64,000 nt of DNA from an uncultured Alphaproteobacteria bacterium (GTDB lineage: Bacteria > Pseudomonadota > Alphaproteobacteria > RF32 > CAG-239): positions 58,870-122,869 of the forward strand of contig CAJUAK010000005.1 in assembly GCA_910584385.1 (NCBI GenBank), read 5' to 3'. The number at the start of each line of letters is the position of its first letter. The stretch's first letter is position 1. Made by a program: the position numbers and the translations under genes. The notes beneath the pieces are model-generated. The model worked only from the letters and a program-made list of their open reading frames with translations, searched no databases and had not been told where the DNA came from. Below are positions 34,217-64,000 of the stretch, piece after piece.

Positions 34217-34293
34217 TGGGAGTTTAGCTCAGCTGGAAGAGCATCTCGTTTACACCGAGAGGGTCGGGAGTTCGAACCTCTCAACTCCCACCA
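34217..34293 (+). tRNA. tRNA-Val (anticodon UAC)
   Basis: GGGAGTT...AACTCCC-A-CCA. Anticodon stem tctcg/cgaga with loop ttTACac. T-loop TTCGAAC. Confidence 0.85.
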
Positions 34294-34295
34294 AT

Positions 34296-34366
34296 CAAAG
34301 CCTCCTTCGGGAGGCTTTTTTTTGTGTATAGATACCCCCCGGCTAGGCCGGGGGGTATCTTTTTTT
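34296..34366 (+). terminator. two tandem rho-independent terminators
   Basis: aaagcctcc-ttcg-ggaggcttt followed by T8, then gataccccccggc-tag-gccggggggtatc (13 bp GC stem) followed by T7. Confidence 0.7.
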
Positions 34367-34487
34367 AAATAAAAACGGTTTGTGAAAATCACCGGGGAGT
34401 TATGTAGATTTAAAATTTCCTTAACCTTCTATAAAGCAAAGGCGGATATTATTTCTATAATAGAAAATTGTTATTTATGGAGAAGGC

Positions 34488-35690
34488 ATGCAAAAGATAG
34501 AGGAAGTTTTAAGCCATTACGGCGTGTCGGGGAAGGTCGTTGCAATTCATGAAGGCCCTTTGGTCAAGCAAATTGAATTTTTACCGGACCCCGGAACAAA
34601 AATGAAAAATATTACATCATCTCTTGATGATATTGCCCGGGAACTTGCTGCGCCGTCTTTGCGTTTGGAGGCGATTGAAGAAAACGGTACCATCGGTTTC
34701 GAATTGCCTGCCGAAACAATGAAAAGCGTAGATTTTCTTTCTTTGCTGCCATCTTCGGAATTTCTGGCGGCGAAAGGGGCACTGCCAATTATTTTGGGTG
34801 TGGATATTAGCGGGCGCCCTGTTATTGCCGATTTGGCAAAAATGCCGCACCTTTTGGTGGCCGGGACAACCGGTTCGGGAAAATCCGTCGGGCTTAACAG
34901 TTTTATCCTTTCTTTAATTGCAAAAAAGCAGCCAGAAGACTTGAAGTTTGTGTTAATCGACCCGAAAAGGATAGAATTTGGCATTTATAATAATCAAAAA
35001 TATCTTTTAACGCCGGTTGTTACTGAAATGGGCGAAGCTTCTGCGGCTTTGTCATTATTGGCGGAAGAAATGGAACGCCGCTACGCTTTATTTGAAGAAA
35101 ACCTGGTTAAAAATATTGGCGAATATAACGAATCTGCGGGGCATCTTCCTTATATCGTTTGCGTAATTGATGAGTTTGCCGATTTGATGTCTTATGATAA
35201 GAAAACATCCGCCATTGTCCAAAGGCTGGCGCAAAAAGCCAGGGCTGCGGGAATTCATCTCATTTTAGCGACCCAACGTCCCTCGGTTGATGTAGTAACC
35301 GGCGTTATAAAAGCTAATTTTCCGACCCGCTTGTCCTATAAAGTGGCAAGTGCTGCAGATTCCCGTACGATTTTGGATGCTGCCGGCGCGGAAAAGCTTA
35401 TCGGGCGCGGTGATGCCTTATATTTGGCCGCTGATGGAAATTTGCAGAGAATACACGGCGCATATGTCGACAATGCCGGAATTGATAAGATCTTGGCTCC
35501 TTATCGGGCAGAAATCAAACCATTGAAGCTCAAAATGGAAAGTAAACCTGCCAATCAGAAAAGTGAAAAAAGCTTTTTTAGAAAAATGTGGGATTTTTGG
35601 AGTTCCCTACGCCAAAGAGACCGGAAAATGATTATAAACGGCATAATGTTTTTGGCAGGCTTTGTCAGCGGTAAAAAGAAAAGGAGATAG
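34488..35690 (+). CDS. FtsK/SpoIIIE-family ATPase, motor (alpha+beta) domains only; no N-terminal TM segment and no gamma domain
   Basis: Collinear with the FtsK C-terminal motor: VIADLAKMPHLLVAGTTGSGKSVGLNSFILSLI, VLIDPKRIEF, VIDEFADLM, ILATQRPSVDVVTGVIKANFPTRLSYKVAS. The C-terminal 55 aa are not a winged-helix gamma domain and end in a hydrophobic stretch. Confidence 0.75.
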   Translation: MQKIEEVLSHYGVSGKVVAIHEGPLVKQIEFLPDPGTKMKNITSSLDDIARELAAPSLRLEAIEENGTIGFELPAETMKSVDFLSLLPSSEFLAAKGALPIILGVDISGRPVIADLAKMPHLLVAGTTGSGKSVGLNSFILSLIAKKQPEDLKFVLIDPKRIEFGIYNNQKYLLTPVVTEMGEASAALSLLAEEMERRYALFEENLVKNIGEYNESAGHLPYIVCVIDEFADLMSYDKKTSAIVQRLAQKARAAGIHLILATQRPSVDVVTGVIKANFPTRLSYKVASAADSRTILDAAGAEKLIGRGDALYLAADGNLQRIHGAYVDNAGIDKILAPYRAEIKPLKLKMESKPANQKSEKSFFRKMWDFWSSLRQRDRKMIINGIMFLAGFVSGKKKRR

Positions 35691-35692
35691 AA

Positions 35693-35986
35693 ATGCATTT
35701 AATCATATTAGGGCTTTTGCTTTATGTCATATTTGCGGAATGGCGGAACATGAAACAAGCCGCCGCTTTGAAAGATTTGGAAAAGAAGCTTGAAAAATAT
35801 AAAAAAGATAAAACATTATGGTACTCGGGCGTTTTGCCTGCGGCTGACAAAATGTGCCTGTTTGAAGAAGCCAAAGGCGGCTATGCCTTGTCCTCTTTGG
35901 ATGATAAGCGCTGGCTTAAAAACGGAGAAGCCGATTTTTTGAAAATCAGCCGTTGGATTTATATTGACGACTTGAAAAATTTATAA
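35693..35986 (+). CDS. small membrane-anchored hypothetical protein
   Basis: N-terminal TM helix LIILGLLLYVIFAEW. 3-nt gap after the FtsK-like gene. Confidence 0.45.
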   Translation: MHLIILGLLLYVIFAEWRNMKQAAALKDLEKKLEKYKKDKTLWYSGVLPAADKMCLFEEAKGGYALSSLDDKRWLKNGEADFLKISRWIYIDDLKNL

Positions 35987-36038
35987 GCTTGCAAAAATAT
36001 TTTTAAAGGGATATCTTTTGGAGAAAGGAGAATATAAA

Positions 36039-36296
36039 ATGGAAAATAAAGTTGCGGTTTTGGCGATTATTGTTGAAGACATGAATTCTGTTGAAGAATT
36101 AAATGCCGTTTTGCATGATTATTCTTCTTATATTATCGGCCGGATGGGAATTCCATACAGATGCAGGGGAATTAACGTGATCAGCGTGGCTTTTGATGCG
36201 CCGCACGATATTATCAGCGCTGTGGCCGGAAAAATCGGAAGGCTTAAGGGCGTCTGCGCAAAAACGGCTTATGCCGGCATGCCGGAAGCCGAATAG
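36039..36296 (+). CDS. TM1266-like putative iron-only hydrogenase system regulator (ACT/NikR-C-like small protein)
   Basis: VAVLAIIVEDMNSVEELNAVLHDYSSYIIGRMGIPYR...GKIGRLKGVCAK matches the TM1266 family pattern. ATG 36039 after AAGGAG. Confidence 0.6.
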   Translation: MENKVAVLAIIVEDMNSVEELNAVLHDYSSYIIGRMGIPYRCRGINVISVAFDAPHDIISAVAGKIGRLKGVCAKTAYAGMPEAE

Positions 36297-36350
36297 TATT
36301 TGTTAACTGACGGGGAAGTTTATTCTGACCCATAAGAGAAAGGTGTGGAG

Positions 36351-37769
36351 ATGTATGATCCGAAATCTTCCAAAGCGGAAGAATTTATTTGCCATGAAGA
36401 AATTTTGGCCTCTATGGAATATGCCGAAAAAAACAAAAATAATTTACAGCTTATTGATGAAATTTTAGAAAAAGCACGTTTGCGCAAAGGGCTTTCCCAT
36501 CGGGAAGCGGCTGTTTTGCTTGATTGTAACATACCTGAAAAAAATGCTGAAATTTATGCTTTGGCAGAACAGATAAAAAAAGACTTTTACGGCAACAGAA
36601 TTGTCCTTTTTGCGCCGCTTTACCTTTCAAACTACTGCGTTAATGGCTGTGTTTATTGCCCATATCATGCTAAAAACAAGCATATTCCCCGCAAGAAAAT
36701 GACGCAGGAAGAAATCAGGAAAGAAGTTATCGCCCTCCAGGATATGGGACATAAGAGACTGGCTTTGGAAGCCGGGGAAGATCCGGTTAATAACCCGATT
36801 GAATATATATTGGAATCCATCAAAACCATTTACGGAATTAAGCATAAAAACGGCGCCATCCGCCGCGTAAATGTTAATATTGCAGCAACGACGGTCGAAA
36901 ATTATCGCAAATTGCATGAAGCAGGTATCGGAACCTATATTCTTTTTCAGGAAACATATAATAAAGAATCTTATGAAAAACTTCACCCAACCGGGCCAAA
37001 GCATAATTATACCTGGCATACGGAAGCTATGGACCGGGCGATGGCCGGCGGCATTGACGATGTGGGCTTGGGCGTTTTGTTTGGCCTGGAATCATACCGT
37101 TACGAGTTTTCAGGAATTTTGATGCATGCCGAACATCTTGAAGCAGCCTTCGGCGTTGGCCCGCATACGATTTCAGTGCCGAGAATCCGCCGGGCGGATG
37201 ACATTGATCCTGATGCGTTTGATAATGGCATTGACGATGATACTTTTGCAAAGATTGTTGCCTGTATCCGTATTGCGGTTCCTTATACCGGAATGATTGT
37301 TTCCACAAGAGAAAGCCAAAAGACAAGGGAGCGGGTTTTGCATTTGGGAATATCCCAAATCAGCGGCGGTTCAAAAACAAGCGTCGGCGGTTATAGCGAA
37401 CCAGAACCGGAAGATGAGAGCTCTGCCCAGTTTGACATCAGCGATAAACGTACATTGGACGAGGTTATTAAATGGCTGATGGAGATGGGATATATCCCGA
37501 GTTTCTGTACGGCTTGTTACAGGGAAGGGCGCACAGGCGACAGATTTATGGAATTATGCAAAAGCAAACAGATTCAAAACTGCTGCCATCCCAATGCTTT
37601 GATGACACTGAAAGAATATCTGGTTGATTATGCCAGCCCTGAAACCAGAGCAATCGGCGAAAAACTTATTCAGTCGGAACTTGGCAGCATTCCCAAGGAG
37701 AAAGTTAAAGAAGTCGTTATTGACCGCCTGGGCAAGATTGAGGATGGCAAACGGGATTTCTATTTTTAG
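36351..37769 (+). CDS. hydG: radical SAM tyrosine lyase, [FeFe]-hydrogenase maturase HydG-like
   Basis: N-terminal radical SAM motif CVNGCVYCPY (ThiH/HydG-like context LFAPLYLSNYC). C-terminal auxiliary-cluster motif CTAC-X22-C (CX2CX22C) diagnostic of HydG. About 472 aa. Confidence 0.7.
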   Translation: MYDPKSSKAEEFICHEEILASMEYAEKNKNNLQLIDEILEKARLRKGLSHREAAVLLDCNIPEKNAEIYALAEQIKKDFYGNRIVLFAPLYLSNYCVNGCVYCPYHAKNKHIPRKKMTQEEIRKEVIALQDMGHKRLALEAGEDPVNNPIEYILESIKTIYGIKHKNGAIRRVNVNIAATTVENYRKLHEAGIGTYILFQETYNKESYEKLHPTGPKHNYTWHTEAMDRAMAGGIDDVGLGVLFGLESYRYEFSGILMHAEHLEAAFGVGPHTISVPRIRRADDIDPDAFDNGIDDDTFAKIVACIRIAVPYTGMIVSTRESQKTRERVLHLGISQISGGSKTSVGGYSEPEPEDESSAQFDISDKRTLDEVIKWLMEMGYIPSFCTACYREGRTGDRFMELCKSKQIQNCCHPNALMTLKEYLVDYASPETRAIGEKLIQSELGSIPKEKVKEVVIDRLGKIEDGKRDFYF

Positions 37770-37778
37770 AGAGGAAAC

Positions 37779-38180
37779 ATGATTAAGCGTTTTTTTACAA
37801 TGTTTTGCCTTTTAAACCTGGCCGGCTGCGCATGGTTTCAAAACCGGACAAACGGTTTGGCACTCAGTGCGGCCGCTAAAGAGGATATTAAAAATATTGT
37901 ATTAAGCTTAAACATGCTCAAAACGGAAATCAGATACGATTATGAAAAGGGCCGGAATGTGTCAAAAGGCATCATCTCCGGCCAGCCTTTCGGCTTTTTA
38001 CCTTGGAATGTTGGCAAGGTTAATGAGCGGAAATTTTTTATAGAAGTCGGAGAGCTTAGCTATTTGCAATGCGAGGGGCTGCTGGAATCCAAGACAGAAG
38101 CGGTTTCTGTCAGCGTTAACGGCATTCCTGATGGCTGGTGCGATAATGAAAATGTTATCCGCTGGATATTTAAACGTTAA
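37779..38180 (+). CDS. hypothetical lipoprotein
   Basis: Signal peptide plus lipobox LAGC. No recognisable domain. Confidence 0.55.
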   Translation: MIKRFFTMFCLLNLAGCAWFQNRTNGLALSAAAKEDIKNIVLSLNMLKTEIRYDYEKGRNVSKGIISGQPFGFLPWNVGKVNERKFFIEVGELSYLQCEGLLESKTEAVSVSVNGIPDGWCDNENVIRWIFKR

Positions 38181-38214
38181 AAAAAAGGCCTCTGAAAACA
38201 GAGGCTTTTTTTTT
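38181..38214. terminator. bidirectional intrinsic terminator
   Basis: A-run, ggcctctg-aaaa-cagaggc, T-run, between two convergent genes. Confidence 0.65.
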
Positions 38215-44392: not shown

Positions 44393-44971
44393 ATGGATTT
44401 TTATATCTTTCGCCATGGGCAAAGCACGTATAACCTGGCAGGGCGCACGCAGGGGCAGACAAATGCTTCCGTTTTGACGGATCAGGGAAAAGAGCAGGCA
44501 CGGAAAGTTGGGCAAAAGCTTGTTGGAAAAGGAATTGGGCTTTTAATTACATCTCCCTTAACAAGGGCTGTGCAAACAGTTAATTTGGCTAATGAATATC
44601 TAAAGCTTCCCATTGTGGAAGACAAGCGTTTTATTGAAGTCAATGTTGGGGAGATCGAGGGGCTTCATTATACGGAAATACAGGAAAAATTCGGAGAAAA
44701 GTACCAACAATGGCGAAGTTCGTCTCCGCTTTATGAAGATATTAAGTTTGAGGGCGGCGAAACCAAAAGACAGGTAAGAGAGCGCGTTTTTTCAGGGTTG
44801 AATGAATATGCGGAAAATAAAAGCTATGCCGCTATTGGAATATCTTCCCATGGCATTATGTTAGAGCAGGTGCTCTTATCGCTTAATCATAATAATGTTA
44901 AAGTTGAAAATGGCGCTGTTTTGCATATTGAAAATAAAAACGGGCAATGGCTGTTTAGGGAGTTGTTTTGA
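44393..44971 (+). CDS. histidine phosphatase (phosphoglycerate mutase) family protein
   Basis: IFRHGQSTYN (RHG motif) at the N-terminus and GISSHG near the C-terminus. Confidence 0.85.
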   Translation: MDFYIFRHGQSTYNLAGRTQGQTNASVLTDQGKEQARKVGQKLVGKGIGLLITSPLTRAVQTVNLANEYLKLPIVEDKRFIEVNVGEIEGLHYTEIQEKFGEKYQQWRSSSPLYEDIKFEGGETKRQVRERVFSGLNEYAENKSYAAIGISSHGIMLEQVLLSLNHNNVKVENGAVLHIENKNGQWLFRELF

Positions 44972-45207
44972 TGATAAATAATAATGATGTTTCCCAACAA
45001 GTTGAAAATGCTTATTTTATAATGCTTTCTCTTTGTCGTGAACTGTATCTGTGCGTTGGCCGTAATCCTGAAAAATCTGAGGAATATTTGGCAAAAACGG
45101 CTGCACTGAAAAAAGATATGCGCTATTTGGATAAGCCGCAGCTTATCGCAAAAGCACAACAGGTTTACGCACCACAGTTGAAAAAATTGTTAGGAAAAAA
45201 AATATGA
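44968..45207 (+). CDS. small helical protein, candidate epsilon/PezA-type antitoxin
   Basis: 79 aa. ATGA overlaps both the upstream stop and the downstream zeta-like start. Confidence 0.45.
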   Translation: MMINNNDVSQQVENAYFIMLSLCRELYLCVGRNPEKSEEYLAKTAALKKDMRYLDKPQLIAKAQQVYAPQLKKLLGKKI

Positions 45208-46106
45208 CTGATTTAAAACGTTTTGAATTAGATGAAGCACAACATCAGAAATGGTTTGAAGATGTTATTCTTCCTCAATTTGCAGAAGGGAAAGAAACTG
45301 CAAAAGTTCCAACTTTTGTTTTACTTACAGGACAGCCTGGCGCTGGAAAAACTTATTCTTCCTTCAGATATGCGCAAAGTATGGAAAGTGAGCCCATCCG
45401 TTTTGGCGCTGATGATTTAAGGCTGCTTTTGCCTTATGCAATGGATGCTATGAGAGAGGATGAGCAGAATTACCCATTTTTAACTAAAAAAGATGCCGGA
45501 TTGGCAAGGGAAAAGCTTGTTGATTATGCACTTGCTCATAAAAAGAATATTTTGGTGGAAAGCATCCTTGCTAATCCTGAAGATTGGAAAATGGGAACAT
45601 TGTTAAAAGCTAAAAAAGCAGGCTACAAGGTTGAATGCGCCGTTTTAGGCGTCCATAGGCATTTAAGCGAAGTCTCTATATTTTCCAGATATGAAGAACA
45701 AAAAGCAATTACAGGCTATGGGTTCGCCCCTACTTTGGATGTTCATGACAAAGCTTATACGCTTCTGCCGGATATAACGGGAAAAATGTTGCAAAACGGC
45801 ATTGCTGATGCTCTAAGCATTTATAACAGAGAATTTAAATGCTTTTATGACAGCAGAGTCGAAAAAGGGCAATCTCCCCAATTGGAAGTGATGAAAGCTA
45901 TTGGACGGTCAAGAAACAGCTCTCTTAATTATGATGAAATGTGCAATGTGGCAGTAAAATGGGATATGGTGCTTGAAAGTATGGCAAAACGTGGCGCAAG
46001 CAGAGATGAAATAGAAAAAGTCCAAATGTTAAAGGCGAATTTTAAGAAAGATACGGCTATTTGTTTTACTCCGGCTTATCGTTATAATTTTAAAGGAAAA
46101 GAGTAG
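45204..46106 (+). CDS. zeta-toxin family P-loop kinase
   Basis: Walker A LTGQPGAGKTY followed by FGADDLR (cf. zeta DGDxFR), ILVESIL, KKAGYKVECAVLGV and SRYEEQ, collinear with PezT/zeta. 300 aa. Confidence 0.6.
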   Translation: MTDLKRFELDEAQHQKWFEDVILPQFAEGKETAKVPTFVLLTGQPGAGKTYSSFRYAQSMESEPIRFGADDLRLLLPYAMDAMREDEQNYPFLTKKDAGLAREKLVDYALAHKKNILVESILANPEDWKMGTLLKAKKAGYKVECAVLGVHRHLSEVSIFSRYEEQKAITGYGFAPTLDVHDKAYTLLPDITGKMLQNGIADALSIYNREFKCFYDSRVEKGQSPQLEVMKAIGRSRNSSLNYDEMCNVAVKWDMVLESMAKRGASRDEIEKVQMLKANFKKDTAICFTPAYRYNFKGKE

Positions 46107-46110
46107 AATA

Positions 46111-47496
46111 ATGCTGGATAAAAATTTTACGGCAGTTTTGCTGGAAGAGGCTTTATCACAAGGCGGAGATTTTGCGGAAGTCTTTATGGAAAACAGTTTT
46201 TCCGGCAGCCTTGTTATTGGCGAAAGGCAAATCAAAGAGGCCGCATCTTCTATTGATAAAGGCGTCGGTGTAAGGGTTTGCAAAGGCGGTGAACTGCAAA
46301 GCTATGCATTTACAAACCGCTTGGATAAGGACAGTTTAATCAAAACAGCCCGCCAAGCAGCTGCCGGTATTAATGAAAAGAAACAAAATATACATTTTAA
46401 CCTGCAAGAAAATGAATTGGCCTCTCCACATATCATTTTGAAAACGCAAAAAGATATTTCAAAAATGCAAAAAGCGGACTTGCTTCGGGATGTTTCGGAA
46501 CGCATTTACGCGGCTCATCCTTCCATTATTCGGACGGATGGAAGTTATCTTGAGGAAATTCAAGAAGTTACGATTGCAAATTCAAACGGATTATGGATTA
46601 GCGACAAGAGGGAACGTACAAGATTTTCTATAAGTGCCCAAGCTCAAAAAGGCGACAGAAATGAGTCTGCCGGGGAAAATATTGGCGCTTTAAAAGGGTT
46701 TGAATTATATGACGGCTGGGACAAGGATGAATTTGCAGCACAGATTGCCGAAGCAGCCATCAGGAAGCTTGAAGCACGCAATTGTCCGAGCGGAAAAATG
46801 CCGGTGATTATCAACAACAAGTTTGGCGGGGTTATATTCCACGAAGCCTGCGGGCATGCCCTTGAAGCAACGGCTTTGGCAAAGAGGGCTTCTGTTTTTC
46901 AGGATAAGCTCGGACAGCAGATTGCTTCTCCGCTTGTGTCTGCCGTTGATGACGGAACAATTCCGAATGCCTGGGGAAGCCAGACAATCGATGACGAAGG
47001 ATTGAAAACACAGCGCAACCTGTTGATAAAAGACGGGATTCTGACGGGCTACCTGATTGATTCTTTTAACGGGAAACGGCTCGGATTGGCGCCAACCGGC
47101 AGTTGCCGCCGGGAAAGCTACCGTTATGCGCCGACATCGAGAATGAATAACACTTTTATCTTAAACGGAACTTCTACATTGGAAGAAATGATTGCCGCAA
47201 CAGATTATGGCCTGTTTGCTTCTAAAATGTCCGGCGGTTCGGTTAACCCGGCAAGCGGCGATTTTAACTTTTCTGTCGATGAGGCTTATATTATCGAAAA
47301 AGGCAAAATAAAACAACAGGTTAAAGGAGCTAAGCTTATTGGCAAAGGAAGCGAGATCCTGAAAAATATTGATATGGTTGGCAACAATTTAGGGCTTGCC
47401 TGCGGTATGTGCGGTTCTGTTTCGGGATCTGTTCCTACAACTGTCGGCCAGCCGGCAATCAGAGTTAGCGAAATTTTAGTCGGAGGTCAAGAATAA
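46111..47496 (+). CDS. tldD: metalloprotease TldD
   Basis: HEACGHALEA (HExxxGH), GGSVNPASGDF. 461 aa. Confidence 0.9.
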   Translation: MLDKNFTAVLLEEALSQGGDFAEVFMENSFSGSLVIGERQIKEAASSIDKGVGVRVCKGGELQSYAFTNRLDKDSLIKTARQAAAGINEKKQNIHFNLQENELASPHIILKTQKDISKMQKADLLRDVSERIYAAHPSIIRTDGSYLEEIQEVTIANSNGLWISDKRERTRFSISAQAQKGDRNESAGENIGALKGFELYDGWDKDEFAAQIAEAAIRKLEARNCPSGKMPVIINNKFGGVIFHEACGHALEATALAKRASVFQDKLGQQIASPLVSAVDDGTIPNAWGSQTIDDEGLKTQRNLLIKDGILTGYLIDSFNGKRLGLAPTGSCRRESYRYAPTSRMNNTFILNGTSTLEEMIAATDYGLFASKMSGGSVNPASGDFNFSVDEAYIIEKGKIKQQVKGAKLIGKGSEILKNIDMVGNNLGLACGMCGSVSGSVPTTVGQPAIRVSEILVGGQE

Positions 47497-48818
47497 TGCT
47501 TGCTGACGAGTTTATTGAAAAATTGTATGCGGCTTGTAAAAGTGAAAATATTGGCAAGTTTCAAATCAAATATTCATTTTCTGCCGAAGAATTTTTAAAT
47601 GTGTTTGACGGGCAGATTTCTTCGCGTGAAAATTCTCAAGAGCAGCTTTACCTTCTTGAAATATCTAAAAACGGGAAAGTCGGGCGTTTTGGCATTAGCT
47701 CTCCCGATGAAGGCGATATTCCTTTTATAATCTCTCAGGCAATGGAAAATGCATCGCTTATTGATGATGCCGATGAAAACTTTTTCTATGACGGGAAGGG
47801 GGAATATCCTAGGGTTTTGCCTTATGCGCCCTTGGCAGATAAGCTTAACAGCCTGAATAAAGAAGATTTTTTGCTTGCCGCAGAAAAACGCGCTTATCAG
47901 AATCCTTTAATTGACAAGGTTATCCGCTGCTCTTACAGCAGAAATTATGGGCGGTCGTCCATTTGTAATTCTTTAGGGCTAAAACAAAGCAAAGATTTTG
48001 ATTCTGCAAGTGCAGGCATATATTTATCGGCTAAAAAAGGCGATGTCGTCAAGACAGCCGGTGAATATGTTTTCTTTGACAAAGCAGAAGACTTTTCTGT
48101 TGAAAACTTTGTGGATAAAGCTGTTGAAAAAGCTGTGAAAAGATTAGAGACAATTAATAAAACTATTGAAAATCAATATGTTGTTTTGTCTCCTCGCGCA
48201 TTTTCCAGCTTGCTTCCCAAAATTGCATCTTTATTTTCTGCTAAAGCTGTTCAGGATAAAAAAAGCCGTTTATGCGGCAAATTAGGGCAAAAAATAGCGG
48301 CAGATAATGTTACTATTATCGACAATCCCTTGTTGGAAAAAGGCTTTGGAACAGCTGCCTATGACAGCGAAGGCATTCCGACCATATATAAAGAAGTTAT
48401 AAAAAACGGCATATTGCAAACGTATCTTTATAATCTGAAAACAGCTCATAAAGACGGTGTCAAATCTACAGGAAATGCTTCAGGAACAGGGATTGGCGTT
48501 GGAAATTTTTATCTTAAGCCTGGAGAAGCCAGCCAGCAAGCATTGTTAGACAAGGCGGGAAATTCTATTTGGATTGAAAGCTTAAACGGATTGCATGCCG
48601 GGTTTGATATTGTTTCAGGCGATTTTTCTTTTGGTGCAGAAGGTTTTGAGATAAGCCGGGGAAAAATCGGCGCAGCATTGGAACAATTTACAATTGCCGG
48701 CAATATTTATCAATTGCTGACGGATATTGTTATGGCTGGGGATGATTTAGAATTTTATGGTTCAAAATTTGGTTCACCATCTGTTTTAGTCAAAGGGTTA
48801 AAGGTTTCGGGAGAGTAA
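47496..48818 (+). CDS. pmbA: metalloprotease TldE/PmbA
   Basis: PmbA_TldD fold (GFDIVSGDFSFGAEGFEI). TAATG overlap with tldD. Confidence 0.85.
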   Translation: MLADEFIEKLYAACKSENIGKFQIKYSFSAEEFLNVFDGQISSRENSQEQLYLLEISKNGKVGRFGISSPDEGDIPFIISQAMENASLIDDADENFFYDGKGEYPRVLPYAPLADKLNSLNKEDFLLAAEKRAYQNPLIDKVIRCSYSRNYGRSSICNSLGLKQSKDFDSASAGIYLSAKKGDVVKTAGEYVFFDKAEDFSVENFVDKAVEKAVKRLETINKTIENQYVVLSPRAFSSLLPKIASLFSAKAVQDKKSRLCGKLGQKIAADNVTIIDNPLLEKGFGTAAYDSEGIPTIYKEVIKNGILQTYLYNLKTAHKDGVKSTGNASGTGIGVGNFYLKPGEASQQALLDKAGNSIWIESLNGLHAGFDIVSGDFSFGAEGFEISRGKIGAALEQFTIAGNIYQLLTDIVMAGDDLEFYGSKFGSPSVLVKGLKVSGE

Positions 48819-49108
48819 ATGGGCTCTCAGAACGCGCTCAGTGTTGTTTGCCATATAAATTCAGGCTGAGCGCTTTCTAAATGGCCGAAATCAGCTTATT
48901 AATTTTATTCGTTTTGCGAATATTATCTATAATATATATTATGCGACAAAAGTATATTATCACACAGGGCACTTCTTCTCTATGCTATTCAAGGGCTAAT
49001 GCGCTGTCCGCCTTTGTTTTCTTCTTAAAATCATGGTGCGCTTATAATTTTACGCCATTATAAAATATGACTTGCGACAGGATTGAATTTAATCTGTCAA
49101 TTTTGTTT

Positions 49109-49639
49109 CTAATCTTCTCTCGCAATATATTTAGGCGGTATAATTCCGCCCTTGATGACAAGCAAATAATATGGAACAACCGTAAATCTCAAGCCTAATT
49201 TTTCATCGCATGCTGACCAATCGACCGGAAATGTGCCTATTTCATCAACAGAATTTAACTTTACCAAGATTTCATCGCAATTTTGCAGTAAGTCCTTATC
49301 TAAATCTGGTTTGAGTGCCGGTGAAATATAAACGGCTTCAATCAGCCCGTCCCTTTGCAAGGCGTCTACATCTATTGAAAATAAATCGGCATTTTCAATA
49401 AAAGGCTTGAACATATTTATACTTTTTTCAGTCCATTTTATCGGCTCTGAAAATCCCCGAATGGCCCGACTGCGCCCTTCGAAGCAGTTTTCCATCCATT
49501 CAACTATTTTTTCATGTGTCGTTTCGCTGCCGGTTCTTTTATAATAATAACGTAAATCAGCTTGGGGATTGCATGCAAATGACAAGATGCCTTCCTGTAA
49601 AGCGGTATTTCCCTTTGATATGTAATGGTAAAGCTTCAT
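49109..49639 (-). CDS. hypothetical protein (176 aa, no recognisable domain)
   Basis: Long ORF with AGGAAG RBS. Flanked by AT-rich noncoding DNA on both sides. Confidence 0.5.
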   Translation of the reverse strand: MKLYHYISKGNTALQEGILSFACNPQADLRYYYKRTGSETTHEKIVEWMENCFEGRSRAIRGFSEPIKWTEKSINMFKPFIENADLFSIDVDALQRDGLIEAVYISPALKPDLDKDLLQNCDEILVKLNSVDEIGTFPVDWSACDEKLGLRFTVVPYYLLVIKGGIIPPKYIARED

Positions 49640-58891: not shown

Positions 58892-59536
58892 ATGGTTTTT
58901 AATGCCCCTGAACGCTTATGCAGCTTATGTCCGCGGTTGGTCGAATTTCGCAATGGGAATATTAAAAAGTTTCCGCATTACTATAACGGTGCTGTTGAAC
59001 CTTTCGGAAATATTGATGCGGAAATCCTTATTGTCGGTCTGGCACCCGGATTAAACGGCGCCAATCAGACCGCCCGCCCCTTTACCAATGATTATGCCGG
59101 CGATGTTTTATATCCCATGCTGAAAAAATATAATCTGGCCCGGGGCGTTTACCAAAAGAGAAAAAATGACGGTTTCGAACTTGTTAACGCGCGTGTAACA
59201 AACGCTGTCCGCTGCGTGCCGCCTCAAAACAAAGTTACGGGAGAAGAAACCAAGACTTGCGGCGTTTTTCTTAAGCAGGAAATAGAAGCCATGCCCCGGC
59301 TGAAAGCCATCTTATGCCTGGGCAGCGTGTCGCATGGCGCGGTTTTAGGCGTTTTGGGTTATAAAAAAAGCCAATATAAATTTGCACACGGCGCCGAGCA
59401 TTTTCTTGATAAGCATAACATCCGCCTGGTTGATTCTTACCACACCTCAAGATACAACATTAATACCGGCGTTTTAACGGAAGAAATGTTTGAAGATGTT
59501 ATCAAAAAAATATGCGGTTTAATTTCCAATTCCTGA
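58892..59536 (+). CDS. uracil-DNA glycosylase, family 4/5 (Fe-S containing)
   Basis: Four Cys (CSLCP, VRCVPP, KTCG) and GLAPG in place of GEAPG. 214 aa. Confidence 0.8.
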   Translation: MVFNAPERLCSLCPRLVEFRNGNIKKFPHYYNGAVEPFGNIDAEILIVGLAPGLNGANQTARPFTNDYAGDVLYPMLKKYNLARGVYQKRKNDGFELVNARVTNAVRCVPPQNKVTGEETKTCGVFLKQEIEAMPRLKAILCLGSVSHGAVLGVLGYKKSQYKFAHGAEHFLDKHNIRLVDSYHTSRYNINTGVLTEEMFEDVIKKICGLISNS

Positions 59537-60094
59537 AAAGCCCATAAAAGCCATGGAGAGCAAACTTGCTGTAATCAACGCAATGGGCGCACCGCGCATG
59601 CTTTGGGGAATATCGGTCAGATTCAGGCGTTCACGCAGGCCGGCAAACAGGACTATAGCTAATGTAAAGCCGACGCTGCTTGAAAAAGCAAAACAAACAG
59701 ACTGCAATAATGTGTAGTTTCTTTGCACACACAGAAGCGCAACGCCCAAAACGGCACAATTGGTTGTAATGAGCGGCAGAAAAATTCCCAAAGCCTGATA
59801 CAAACCCGGAGATGTCTTTTTCAAAACGATTTCCACCATTTGAACCAATGAGGCAATAACCAGAATAAATACAATCGTATTCATAAAAGCTAAGCCGTTT
59901 GGCAACAGCAGGGCTTTATATATTATGGAAGTTACCAATGTTGATATGGTTATGACAAAGATAACCGCCCCGCCCATGCCTGCAGCCGTGGACACTTTTT
60001 TTGAAACGCCAAGGAAGGGGCAAATTCCAAGAAATTGGGAAAGGACAATATTGTTAACCAAAACGGCTGTGATGAAAATAAGCGCATATTCCAT
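59519..60094 (-). CDS. rnfA: Rnf complex subunit A
   Basis: NNIVLSQFLGICPFLGVSKK signature. 191 aa. Confidence 0.9.
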   Translation of the reverse strand: MEYALIFITAVLVNNIVLSQFLGICPFLGVSKKVSTAAGMGGAVIFVITISTLVTSIIYKALLLPNGLAFMNTIVFILVIASLVQMVEIVLKKTSPGLYQALGIFLPLITTNCAVLGVALLCVQRNYTLLQSVCFAFSSSVGFTLAIVLFAGLRERLNLTDIPQSMRGAPIALITASLLSMAFMGFSGIGN

Positions 60095-60699
60095 TATTTT
60101 ATTCCCTGTTTGGCTTTATAAGCATTTAAAATCAGAATCAATCCCGCCAGGGCCAAAAAAGCTCCGGGCGGCATAATAAACAGCAAAACCGTGTCGGAGC
60201 CTTCGGCTAAAAAGCTCCACCCAAAAATTGAGCCTGCGCCCAAAACTTCGCGGACCGTGCCTAAAATAGTCAGGGCCAAAGCAAAACCCAAGCCCATACC
60301 CACAGCATCTAAAAAAGACTGCTTTACATTATTTTTAGAAGCAAAAGCTTCCGCACGCCCCAAGATAAGGCAGTTAACCACAATCAAGGGGATGAATATT
60401 CCCAGCCGGGCATGAAGCGCCGGCAGATAAGCCGCCATAAGCATATCCACAACGGTAACAAAAGTCGCAATAATAACAATATAAGAAGGAATTCGGATTG
60501 TTCCCGGAATGAGATTCTTCACAAGGGAAATCGCGCAATTAGACAAGATTAAAACAAAAAGCGTCGCAAGCCCCATGCCTAAGCCGTTTGCCGCAGAAGT
60601 CGTTACGCCGAGCGTCGGGCACATGCCCAACATCATAACAAAAATGGGGTTTTCCTTAATGATTCCTCTTGTTAAGTTTTCAAAACTGACTTTATTCAT
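60094..60699 (-). CDS. rnfE: Rnf complex subunit E
   Basis: GMCPTLGVTTSAANGLGMGLAT. Confidence 0.9.
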   Translation of the reverse strand: MNKVSFENLTRGIIKENPIFVMMLGMCPTLGVTTSAANGLGMGLATLFVLILSNCAISLVKNLIPGTIRIPSYIVIIATFVTVVDMLMAAYLPALHARLGIFIPLIVVNCLILGRAEAFASKNNVKQSFLDAVGMGLGFALALTILGTVREVLGAGSIFGWSFLAEGSDTVLLFIMPPGAFLALAGLILILNAYKAKQGIK

Positions 60700-61279
60700 T
60701 TTTGTTTCCTAAATTGAACCGATTATATCCCTTATAAGCCTTTGAAAGCGCGTCAACAGCGGCGCGGGAGCTGATTGTCGCGGCTGTAACGGCATCAATA
60801 TCGCCGCCGTCTTTCTTTAATTTAAAATCATTAGAGGCTGGGCGATAGCCTTTAAATTGGCTTTTAAAGCGCGTTTCGCTTATTTTTGTTCCCAAGCCCG
60901 GCGTTTCATGCTGTTCCAGTATTTCATAATTATTAATCGTTCCATCAATGAAAATCCCGACCATCATTTCTATTTTTCCGCCAAAACCTTTATCTGATGA
61001 TGATTTGACGGCTATTGACGTTATCTGTCCGTCTTTTCTTGCCGGAAACAACTCCATTTGGGTTCCGTCTTTTAATTTAACGCTGATACGTTCGGCATAA
61101 GGGTCGTTGTCAAAATCTCCCCCAACAACAGATGCTATTGCCTCAAGCTGTTTTTTTTCTTTGGCTTTGCTGATTGCAGGTTCTGTCAGTTTATACACGC
61201 TTCCGATTAAAAAAGCCGAACAGGCGGAAATAATAACAAGCGTTACGCATAAATTAAACAGGGATATTTTTTTTGACAT
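60692..61279 (-). CDS. rnfG: Rnf complex subunit G (FMN-binding)
   Basis: IDAVTAATISSRAV flavin attachment motif. Start at ATG 61279 (TAATG overlap with rnfD). Confidence 0.85.
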   Translation of the reverse strand: MSKKISLFNLCVTLVIISACSAFLIGSVYKLTEPAISKAKEKKQLEAIASVVGGDFDNDPYAERISVKLKDGTQMELFPARKDGQITSIAVKSSSDKGFGGKIEMMVGIFIDGTINNYEILEQHETPGLGTKISETRFKSQFKGYRPASNDFKLKKDGGDIDAVTAATISSRAAVDALSKAYKGYNRFNLGNKNE

Positions 61280-62277
61280 TATTTTACCCCTCCTTTTCCA
61301 AACGGCCTCGGCCGGCAATAGGCGTCTATCAACGGAACAAAAGCGTTCATAATCAGAATGGCAAAAGAAACTCCTTCCGGATATGAGCTGTAAAGGCGGA
61401 TGGCCACCGTCAGTATGCCGCAGCCGACAGCAAAAACAATCTGTCCGTTTTTAAACATTGGCGAAGTAACATAATCTGTTGCCATAAATATGGCACCCAG
61501 CATTAAACCGCCGGAAAGCAAATGGGTTATGGGGTCATATTTCGGATTATCCGTTAAAAGCCACATCATGCCGGTTATTAAAAAGACAGTCGCCATATAA
61601 TAAAAGGGAATGTGCCAGGTTATTACCCGCCGATAGAGCATATATGCCAGCCCCAGGAGCAGAGCCGCTGCCGAAACTTCTCCCAATGATCCGCCGGTAA
61701 GCCCGAAAAACATATGGGCATAATCCGGCAATTCTGCCGTTTTGGACATCAGAGACGTTGCAGAACTGGAAGCATCTATATGTTTAAGCACATTCAACGT
61801 GGTTGCGCCGGTTTGCATGTCTATATTTAAAAAGTCCCGCCAATTTGGAATCGGCCAGGTTGTCATTTGGACCGGAAAAGAAATAAAAAGAAAAACTCTT
61901 CCCGCCAAAGCCGGATTAAACAGGTTTTTTCCCAAGCCGCCGAATGCCATTTTTGCAATGCCGATTGCCACAAAACACCCAACAAGAGTCATCCATGCCG
62001 GCATTGAGCTGGGCAAATTAAATGCCAACAACAAGCCTGTTATAATTGCAGAATAATTATGCAGCGTGTTAACAGGATTTTTAAACAAATAACGGTTAAT
62101 CAGATATTCGCACAGCACACATCCGGCAACGGATGTCAAAATAACCGCGAGCGCGGAAATGCCAAAAATAAAAATCGAGGCCGCCGCTGCCGGAAGCAAG
62201 GCGATTACCACATCTTTCATTAGCATGGCGGTTGTTTTAGATGAACTTACATGAGGTGCCGTTGAAACTTTAAGCAT
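61279..62277 (-). CDS. rnfD: Rnf complex subunit D
   Basis: FNPALAGRVFLFISFP plus the NQR2/RnfD fold. Confidence 0.9.
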   Translation of the reverse strand: MLKVSTAPHVSSSKTTAMLMKDVVIALLPAAAASIFIFGISALAVILTSVAGCVLCEYLINRYLFKNPVNTLHNYSAIITGLLLAFNLPSSMPAWMTLVGCFVAIGIAKMAFGGLGKNLFNPALAGRVFLFISFPVQMTTWPIPNWRDFLNIDMQTGATTLNVLKHIDASSSATSLMSKTAELPDYAHMFFGLTGGSLGEVSAAALLLGLAYMLYRRVITWHIPFYYMATVFLITGMMWLLTDNPKYDPITHLLSGGLMLGAIFMATDYVTSPMFKNGQIVFAVGCGILTVAIRLYSSYPEGVSFAILIMNAFVPLIDAYCRPRPFGKGGVK

Positions 62278-62302
62278 TGTTTAGTCGTCTTTCTCTTATT
62301 TG

Positions 62303-63628
62303 CTATTTTCTCTTTTTTAATTCATTTTTTGCCAATTTGCAATAATCCAACAACGGGATTCTTGCCGGGCATATGTAAGCGCAGCAGCCGCATTCTATAC
62401 AATCCAAAACATGAAGGGGCTTTACTTCATTAAACATATTCTGCCGCGCATAGCGGGCAATTGCAAAAGGTTCCAGCCCCATCGGGCAGGCTGCGACACA
62501 TTTTCCGCAGCGAATGCATTGCTCTTCTTCGCCTTTGCGGGAAATGCTTTCGGATAGCAACAAAAGCCCTGAAGTCAATTTGGTTACCGGTGCCTGAATA
62601 TTCACCGCAGAAGTCCCCATCATCGGCCCGCCGAACACAACCTGAGCCGTATCTTCAGGAATCCCGCCACATTTTTCTAAAAGAAATGCCGCCGGCGTCC
62701 CTATCCTGGTTCTAAAATTTCCGGGCATGGAACATTTATCCCCGCTCACGGTTACAATCCGTTCAAAAAGCGGCTTATTTTTTTGGACTGCCTCATAAAC
62801 GGCAAAAACCGTACCGACATTTTGCACAATGCATCCGACATCCGCCGGCAGCTTTCCGTTCGGCACTTCCCTGCCCGCGATGGCTTTGATTAATTGTTTT
62901 TCAGCCCCTTGGGGATATTTTGTTTTCAAGACCTGAACATTAACGCCGACATAAGATTTTGTCAGCTTTTGCATGATTTTAATGGCTTCGGGCTTATTTT
63001 CATCAATGGCAATGACAGCGTTTTGAATTCCCAAAGCTTTATTTATAATCTTGGCGCCGATGATAATTTCTTCGGCATGTTCGACCATCAAACGGTCATC
63101 CGCCGTCAAATATGGCTCGCATTCTATGCCGTTTAAAATAAGAATATCTATTTTTTTGCCTTCGGGCACTGTCGTTTTAATCGGCGTGGGGTAACCGGCG
63201 CCGCCCATTCCGACAATTCCGCCTTCCCTTATCTTTTGGATGATTTCATCCTGTGTATAAGGGATTTCCTTGATGATATCGGCGCTTCTGTCGATTGAAG
63301 GTTCAAACTCGTCGCCTTCAACCCGGATTGTTATCATATTTTCCAAATAGCCGAATTCGCCTTCAATCGCTTCAACCTTTAAAACTTCTCCCGACACGGA
63401 AGAATGTACGTCAGAAGAAACAATTCCGTCAGAATCCGCAAGAAGCGTGCCGACTTTGACCTTATCCCCTTTATTGACCAATATTTTTGCAGGGGCGCCA
63501 ATGTGCTGTTTGACCGGAATATAAACTGTTTCCGGCAGGCCGGCGTCTTTAATCGGCGTCTGGGAGGTTATTTTATGTTTATCGGGATGAATGCCGCCTA
63601 AAGGAAAAGTTTTCATTTTACTGCTCAT
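62303..63628 (-). CDS. rnfC: Rnf complex subunit C
   Basis: NADH-binding/SLBB region and two 4Fe-4S motifs (CIRCGKCVAACP, CIECGCCAYICP). Confidence 0.9.
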   Translation of the reverse strand: MSSKMKTFPLGGIHPDKHKITSQTPIKDAGLPETVYIPVKQHIGAPAKILVNKGDKVKVGTLLADSDGIVSSDVHSSVSGEVLKVEAIEGEFGYLENMITIRVEGDEFEPSIDRSADIIKEIPYTQDEIIQKIREGGIVGMGGAGYPTPIKTTVPEGKKIDILILNGIECEPYLTADDRLMVEHAEEIIIGAKIINKALGIQNAVIAIDENKPEAIKIMQKLTKSYVGVNVQVLKTKYPQGAEKQLIKAIAGREVPNGKLPADVGCIVQNVGTVFAVYEAVQKNKPLFERIVTVSGDKCSMPGNFRTRIGTPAAFLLEKCGGIPEDTAQVVFGGPMMGTSAVNIQAPVTKLTSGLLLLSESISRKGEEEQCIRCGKCVAACPMGLEPFAIARYARQNMFNEVKPLHVLDCIECGCCAYICPARIPLLDYCKLAKNELKKRK

Positions 63629-64000
63629 CGGAACCCTCTGGTTTTTTATAAATTATTGCGCCTGTGGGGCAAGCTTCGGATAATTCTTTTCCAAATTTTT
63701 CCGCTGATACGCTTGCCGGAATATAAGAAAGGTTGTTTTCTATTGTGATTTCTGGAACAATTTTTGCGCATTTGCCGCAAGCGATGCAAGCCACTTTGCA
63801 GTTCTTTCTGGCTAAGGCGCCTTTTTGCTTATTGCTGCAAGCAACATAAACCCTTTGCCCGTTTTTTCCTTTCGGGCGGATTTCAAACAATTTTCTCGGG
63901 CATATGTTGACACAGGCACCGCAGGATGTACATTTATCTTCATCCACAACCGGAAGCCCCGTTTCCTCATCTATGTGCAATGCGCCGAATTTGCACACCT
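63618..64000 (-). CDS. rnfB: Rnf complex subunit B (5' partial, runs off window)
   Basis: Ferredoxin-type CTSCGACVNICP and CIACGKCAKIVP. The N-terminus lies beyond position 64000. Confidence 0.8.
   Translation of the reverse strand, partial: VCKFGALHIDEETGLPVVDEDKCTSCGACVNICPRKLFEIRPKGKNGQRVYVACSNKQKGALARKNCKVACIACGKCAKIVPEITIENNLSYIPASVSAEKFGKELSEACPTGAIIYKKPEGSDEQ

Follow-up and report, generated by a model that had tools for sequence, protein, structure and literature searches.

A hydG gene and its TM1266-family companion, set apart from hydE, hydF and hydA: probable part of an [FeFe]-hydrogenase maturation system dispersed over the genome of a gut alphaproteobacterium

Does a hydG gene that stands without hydE, hydF and hydA still serve the maturation of an [FeFe] hydrogenase, or has its product been put to another use? 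The question is raised by a 64-kb stretch of alphaproteobacterial DNA (the window, here always meaning the stretch at its full length), in which a gene for a HydG-type radical SAM enzyme follows one for a small TM1266-family protein. A preliminary description, made from the letters alone, had called the pair an orphan. We consider it very probable that the DNA comes from an anaerobic gut alphaproteobacterium whose genes for [FeFe]-hydrogenase maturation are dispersed, and that the larger gene is the hydG of this system, accompanied by a common small companion; hydE, hydF and hydA would lie elsewhere in the same genome. The locus comprises:

34488-35690: FtsK-like gene (FtsK/SpoIIIE domain), two genes upstream of the pair, with a 97-aa ORF in between
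35972..36001, + strand: weak sigma-70-like promoter candidate upstream of the pair (TTGAAA-18-AATATT, 9/12 positions), such matches being no more numerous in the region than in shuffles
36039..36296, + strand: TM1266-family protein, 85 aa (ATG at 36039, stop at 36294-36296), with a NikR-C-terminal-like/ACT-like fold
36351..37769, + strand: hydG, 472 aa, radical SAM tyrosine lyase and H-cluster maturase (ATG at 36351; stop at 37767-37769 included)
37779..38180, + strand: predicted lipoprotein gene, 133 aa, with the lipobox LLNLAGC, beginning 9 nt past hydG
38188-38205: hairpin after the lipoprotein gene

Both ORFs of the pair are indeed found in the interval 36018-37769 to which they had been assigned, but the small gene starts at the ATG at 36039, with an AAGGAG 8 nt ahead of it; position 36018 marks an in-frame TTG further upstream. 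The gap between the two genes measures 57 nt. Regarding the flanks, previously given as a lipoprotein gene and an FtsK fragment, the former does lie directly downstream, but the FtsK-like gene is not an immediate neighbour, being separated from the pair by the 97-aa ORF; a tRNA-Val gene also lies just upstream of the pair. The lipoprotein gene, which is probably co-transcribed with hydG, had no match in Pfam or NCBIfam and no counterpart in the relatives L003, L004 and L011.

HydG and its cluster ligands

The 472-aa protein scored 940.7 bits against TIGR03955, the NCBIfam equivalog model for HydG (cut-off 312.15), with residues 2-472 covering the model end to end, and its Pfam domains are Radical_SAM and BATS. 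Residues 3-472 aligned with residues 13-480 of Thermoanaerobacter italicus HydG (4WCX; 574 bits), i.e., through the last residue, and HydG of Carboxydothermus hydrogenoformans (4RTB) matched with 365 bits. The window protein has the CX3CX2C motif, the TIM barrel, the CX2CX22C domain and the conserved histidines in common with these two enzymes; it differs from them by ordinary sequence divergence and in its host, a gut MAG labelled as an alphaproteobacterium rather than a thermophilic Firmicute.

HydG is one of three accessory enzymes that assemble the metal centre of hydrogen-producing [FeFe] hydrogenases. Its tyrosine substrate is cleaved to 2-iminoacetate at the N-terminal [4Fe-4S]/SAM site, and the auxiliary site consists of a [4Fe-4S] cluster joined via a free cysteine to a histidine-held 'dangler' Fe(II); after two turnovers, an Fe(II)(CO)2(CN)(cysteinate) synthon is released (PMC8162317, PMC10114646). 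The cysteine motifs proposed earlier for both sites were borne out: the radical SAM motif reads C96-x3-C100-x2-C103 and the C-terminal auxiliary-cluster motif C386-x2-C389-x22-C412, with all six cysteines invariant across 81 aligned HydG sequences (81/81); of the 472 positions, 190 are invariant columns in this alignment. The ligand of the dangler iron is a conserved histidine, His265 in the T. italicus enzyme (PMC8162317). In the window protein, H259, H262 and H272 (positions 266, 269 and 279 of the 4WCX chain) are the three candidates; any of them could equal His265 by chain numbering, and all three are invariant in 81/81 sequences. The residue classes needed for HydG chemistry are therefore all represented, and, judged from its sequence, the gene is a normal, well-conserved hydG, with enzymatic activity predicted from these intact residues.

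Comparison with syntenic relatives yielded a dN/dS of 0.04-0.05 for HydG (dN 0.11-0.13, synonymous sites being saturated). The neighbouring Lon gave indistinguishable values (dN/dS 0.04-0.05, dN 0.11-0.13), and this equal divergence argues that the pair has been inherited vertically since the syntenic species split. For the TM1266-family protein, dN/dS was 0.13-0.23. HydG is thus under strong purifying selection, and we take the pair to be functional.

The TM1266-family partner

Assignment of the 85-aa upstream protein to the TM1266-type family, as initially proposed, held in both model searches (TIGR03959, 104.7 bits with a cut-off of 60.8; TM1266-like PF21699 of Pfam, 102.4 bits with a cut-off of 27). 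The protein consists of a single beta-alpha-beta-beta-alpha-beta domain and shares the fold of the Thermotoga maritima TM1266 crystal structure (2NZC). Among 45 TM1266 homologues, the conserved positions were YIIGRMG.PY, DAP and GK.G.L.G...K, and no His or Cys column was more than 90% conserved that could provide metal ligands.

The fold invites comparison with NikR. However, the ribbon-helix-helix DNA-binding domain of NikR is absent from the 85-aa protein, and the NikR nickel site is not retained. With neither a DNA-binding domain nor conserved His/Cys ligands, TM1266 is not a NikR-like metalloregulator, a candidate role that we rejected, and on its own it cannot act as a DNA-binding regulator. 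Most likely, it modulates the HydG step by binding either a small ligand or HydG. It may be a dedicated, ligand-sensing and HydG-specific partner, which we rank as likelier than the possibility that the pair serves a purpose outside H-cluster assembly. If true, this would be the first functional assignment for an uncharacterised family, on which the literature holds nearly nothing beyond incidental mention; TM1266 is thus a reasonable target for work on HydG regulation.

The association of the two genes is shared well beyond the window. In 44 of the 80 HydG loci surveyed (see below), TM1266 preceded the maturase genes, and here it is directly 5′ of hydG. Whenever hydE was outside the locus, TM1266 was found directly upstream of hydG, although this apparent preference for HydG over HydE could be an ascertainment effect, as all surveyed loci were chosen through HydG.

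The nearest HydG loci bear the labels uncultured Alphaproteobacteria or Azospirillum. Among named proteins, the closest HydG (OLA82450.1; 86% identity) comes from 'Azospirillum sp. 51_20', a MAG filed by NCBI under Rhodospirillales. The place of these gut MAGs in GTDB is presumably the order RF32. The gene order LpxK-WaaA-DUF374-FliN-like-Lon-HU...tRNA-Val...TM1266-HydG-U32 peptidase is common to the window and the relatives L003, L004 and L011, with SIR2 beyond the U32 peptidase gene also in L003 and L011. The highly prevalent '51_20'-type species also has the pair on its own, but among other genes, with TerC and SIMPL genes upstream, and two hypothetical genes followed by a methyltransferase gene downstream. 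That the pair is intact in such wholly different surroundings argues that TM1266 and HydG travel as a unit.

Separation from hydA, hydE and hydF

The absence of hydA, hydE and hydF from the 64 kb, noted at the outset, was borne out by three approaches. A six-frame scan of the window found neither the H-cluster motifs L1, L2 and L3 nor HydF motifs. A phmmer search of every six-frame ORF of 60 aa or longer (360 in total), with HydE, HydF and HydA references that had been verified against NCBIfam, recovered none of these proteins; the references matched only HydG itself and, trivially, a ferredoxin domain in RnfC. Finally, Pfam labels, which covered the window from 26.3 to 47.8 kb plus stretches beyond both ends, gave the same picture. 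The preliminary description had allowed for hydAEF lying just outside the window. We read the flanks from public-assembly contigs that carry identical proteins and reach past the window, and found on the left (~7 kb) Ppx, FtsJ, RsmB, flagellar rod genes, RecA, a FabI-like gene, SppA and GatC, and on the right (~6.8 kb) RnfB, RseC, ApbE, a CDP-alcohol transferase, DsbD, AsmA and an HD-domain gene. HydA, HydE and HydF are thus absent from the 64 kb and from ~7 kb past either end.

How unusual is such a separation? We compiled one genome per species into a survey of 80 HydG loci (79-87% identity), which were classified with NCBIfam-verified references into the following arrangements:

TM1266-HydE-HydG-HydF: 21/80 loci
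HydG entirely alone: 19/80 loci
TM1266-HydG only: 12/80 loci
other partial arrangements: 28/80 loci

No more than 3 of the 80 loci had a hydrogenase gene (HydA) within 10 kb of HydG, and 16 loci with 5 kb or more of sequence to either side were without HydE and HydF. The arrangement seen in the window, TM1266-HydG only, also occurs in Ilyobacter polytropus and some Clostridia, and HydG stands alone in the surveyed loci of Melainabacteria, for which confurcating FeFe hydrogenases have been reported (PMC3787301). In about ten alphaproteobacterial relatives of the window organism, none of hydE, hydF and hydA was found within 10 kb. Location of hydG apart from hydE, hydF and hydA is therefore common across phyla and a conserved state in this lineage, and the view of the pair as an unusual 'orphan' is not supported. 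Among the loci with HydF adjacent, L014 and L019 are the nearest HydG neighbours in a neighbour-joining tree; we rejected them as Alphaproteobacteria, since their ~50% GC and DegV-type flanks mark them as ordinary Firmicutes.

Against this background, the window can be compared with the canonical TM1266-hydE-hydG-hydF operon of Clostridia (e.g., L008, L010, L077 Sporobacter termitidis). The window has TM1266 and hydG of the same families in the same order and orientation, and its HydG is 80-85% identical to HydG of these operons; it differs in lacking hydE and hydF, so that TM1266 abuts hydG across the 57-nt gap. TM1266 of S. termitidis is as close to the alphaproteobacterial TM1266 proteins (68.2%) as the latter are among themselves (68.3%), for which reason we chose HydF of this species as a further query. 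It retrieved proteins of 76-100% identity, and every organism-named match among the 120 listed was from Firmicutes.

A dispersed hyd system under the gut 'Azospirillum' label has already been described. Table 1 of Degli Esposti et al. (2016) lists HydE, HydF and HydG in the human-gut genomes 'Azospirillum CAG:239', 'CAG:260' and 'Acetobacter CAG:977', which also encode type A and/or M3 [FeFe] hydrogenases; the maturase accession numbers are far apart and non-adjacent in CAG:239 and CAG:977, whereas HydF and HydG are adjacent in CAG:260 (PMC4967309). These are gut MAGs that share the 'Azospirillum' label of the window's closest relatives, and in CAG:239 and CAG:977 HydG is, by accession number, away from HydE and HydF just as hydG is in the window; the window species is not itself among the tabulated genomes, and the link to them is drawn from NCBI label and habitat.

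Proposed role of the pair and competing explanations

In the reading that we favour, HydG would cleave tyrosine at its SAM cluster to 2-iminoacetate, which would travel through the barrel to the auxiliary cluster near the C-terminus and be converted there to CO and CN− ligands. After two turnovers, an Fe(CO)2(CN)(cysteinate) synthon would leave HydG, to be processed by HydE and HydF, encoded elsewhere, and handed to HydA. TM1266 may modulate the HydG step as a ligand- or HydG-binding domain. Such a system is compatible with the gene content of the window: the Rnf complex at its end, recognised earlier, is real (RnfC, D, G, E and A, with RnfB just outside) and fits a ferredoxin-based anaerobe. 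Together with LPS and flagellar genes in the region and relatives labelled Alphaproteobacteria or Azospirillum, this makes the anaerobic, ferredoxin-based life in an alphaproteobacterium-like genome that had been suggested a reasonable assumption.

Three other explanations deserve consideration. The chance that the name HydG is wrong, and that the protein is ThiH or a different radical SAM lyase of tyrosine or tryptophan, is close to nil. ThiH does share a homologous radical SAM tyrosine-lyase core; its model TIGR02351 was the second-best family (292.6 bits), and the structure 7PD1 matches residues 67-385. However, this score falls under the cut-off of 380 and the match is confined to residues 35-384, whereas the HydG model reached three times its own cut-off. 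ThiH has no counterpart of the C-terminal domain of ~90 residues that carries CX2CX22C in the window protein and whose cysteines are invariant among the aligned HydG sequences, and no thiamine genes flank hydG. The model scores and the C-terminal domain thus refute identity with ThiH, in agreement with the preliminary assignment to HydG. It is likewise very unlikely that the pair represents a recent horizontal fragment, i.e., the remnant of a hyd operon from Firmicutes that entered via a tRNA-Val/FtsK-like insertion and is perhaps non-functional cargo. An identity of ~80-85% to Clostridia HydG, a star-like tree, the proximity of the Sporobacter TM1266 to its alphaproteobacterial counterparts, and the tRNA-Val and FtsK/SpoIIIE-domain genes just upstream would all be in line with such an event. 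Yet relatives without the FtsK-like gene have the pair at the same spot beside tRNA-Val, the divergence of HydG equals that of Lon, and the GC content of the 36-38 kb stretch with the pair (0.43) matches that of the whole window. Decay, moreover, is ruled out by the dN/dS of HydG, and we rejected the idea of a decaying acquired fragment. Lon-like divergence, matching GC content and low dN/dS together imply that any transfer was ancient; as such, it would be compatible with the function proposed above and no rival to it.

This leaves the pair as a true orphan, in a lineage that lost, or never had, HydE, HydF and HydA and employs TM1266 and HydG for another purpose. Its products may be free CO and CN−, 2-iminoacetate or p-cresol, or else an Fe-carbonyl-cyanide unit that goes into another cofactor. 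In favour of this are the absence of hydE, hydF and hydA from the 64 kb and the ~14 kb of flanks, their absence near hydG in the alphaproteobacterial relatives, and the release of free CO and CN− by HydG, as reported in work cited in PMC10114646. The same local absence, however, is seen in organisms that make FeFe hydrogenases, namely the Melainabacteria (PMC3787301), and in many Firmicutes loci, and the similarly labelled gut 'Azospirillum/Acetobacter' MAGs have all three maturases plus hydrogenases (PMC4967309). The close identity (80-87%) to HydG of canonical TM1266-HydE-HydG-HydF operons, with every ligand kept, gives no sign of a changed function, and the TM1266 family is itself defined by its association with hyd systems. 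We therefore hold it to be most improbable that a lineage without HydE and HydF uses the TM1266-HydG pair alone to provide CO/CN− or an iron-carbonyl-cyanide unit outside the H-cluster, and the earlier suggestion of a use other than H-cluster synthesis finds no backing in an arrangement that is common and conserved in the lineage.

Enzyme, companion and arrangement are all known, and there is a prior report for the lineage; in this sense the locus is ordinary: the distance from hydA, hydE and hydF is no sign of a new function. As a carrier of the dispersed maturation system that we favour, the window organism would be a hydrogen-metabolising anaerobe of the kind noted in the debate on the alphaproteobacterial ancestry of eukaryotic [FeFe] hydrogenases. 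Beyond annotation, the locus matters little; a mildly useful by-product is the observation that TM1266 remains next to hydG where the operon has been broken up.

The exact HydG sequence of the window is present on 55 public-assembly contigs, including one of the NCBI MAG GCA_948783065.1, and the RnfC gene of the window is also carried by GCA_948633655.1. A 662-aa HydG match that scored above the self-match (P0131) proved to be an internal tandem duplication on a single contig, probably an assembly artefact.

HydG and TM1266 compared across lineages

HydG proteins from Alphaproteobacteria, Clostridia, Melainabacteria and Fusobacteria share 79-87% identity (loci L003-L082), and the tree built from these loci is star-like. 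MAGs labelled as Alphaproteobacteria divide into two distinct HydG groups, one comprising the window's protein together with L003-L007, L011 and L041, the other L027, L042 and L056. The TM1266 protein of Sporobacter termitidis is as distant from its alphaproteobacterial counterparts as these are from one another. On the sequence comparisons, this hints at a hyd module that was exchanged laterally long ago among gut anaerobes.

In the 'Azospirillum sp. 51_20'-type species, which is highly prevalent (2593 blocks of the collection list it), TM1266 and HydG likewise form an isolated pair (L087-L090, 9695-11419). Its surroundings are unrelated to those in the window: upstream of the pair lie TerC and SIMPL, and on the downstream side a methyltransferase gene comes after two hypothetical ones.

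P0131, a 662-aa HydG encoded on a single 54,816-base ENA contig, scored above the self-match in the HydG protein search; its residues 249-438 are tandemly duplicated internally, most likely an assembly artefact. A query with the first 50 residues of a Firmicutes HydF returned N-terminal fragments of 54-60 aa (P0104, P0108 and others), each on 35 to 178 contigs, some of them longer than 20 kb. HydF gene calls may be consistently split or truncated in some abundant species.

The tRNA-Val stretch upstream of the pair

34218-35986: an FtsK/SpoIIIE-domain gene and a 97-aa ORF, preceded by tRNA-Val and a pair of strong terminator hairpins
34297-34360: the two hairpins

The FtsK/SpoIIIE-domain protein has 400 aa, is devoid of the membrane part and scores 322 bits against an FtsK cut-off of 1566. 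In the relatives sharing the window's gene order around the pair (L003, L004 and L011), tRNA-Val is present and both the FtsK/SpoIIIE-domain gene and the 97-aa ORF are absent. These two genes beside tRNA-Val may be the remnant of an integrative element.

Putative replication terminus and other genes in the window

44968-48818: 78-aa ORF, zeta-toxin-domain gene and PmbA/TldD pair, in that order
45204-46106: zeta-toxin-domain gene
48927-48944, minus strand: core of a dif-like site, TTGTCGCATAATATATATTATAGATAAT, within the intergenic gap of 48800-49110
59519-63998 and ~1 kb past the right end: complete Rnf cluster (RnfB, then RnfC, D, G, E and A)

Cumulative GC skew of the window reaches its maximum at 48800-49110, where gene orientation switches from plus to minus. 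The search for dif-like sites, allowing up to three mismatches, gave one match against 0.04 expected. Judged by skew peak, orientation flip and dif-like site, this region is probably the replication terminus.

The 78-aa ORF preceding the zeta-toxin-domain gene possibly encodes its antitoxin. Further downstream, the Rnf cluster, with RnfB immediately outside the window and ApbE and RseC adjoining, fits an anaerobic, ferredoxin-based energy metabolism.
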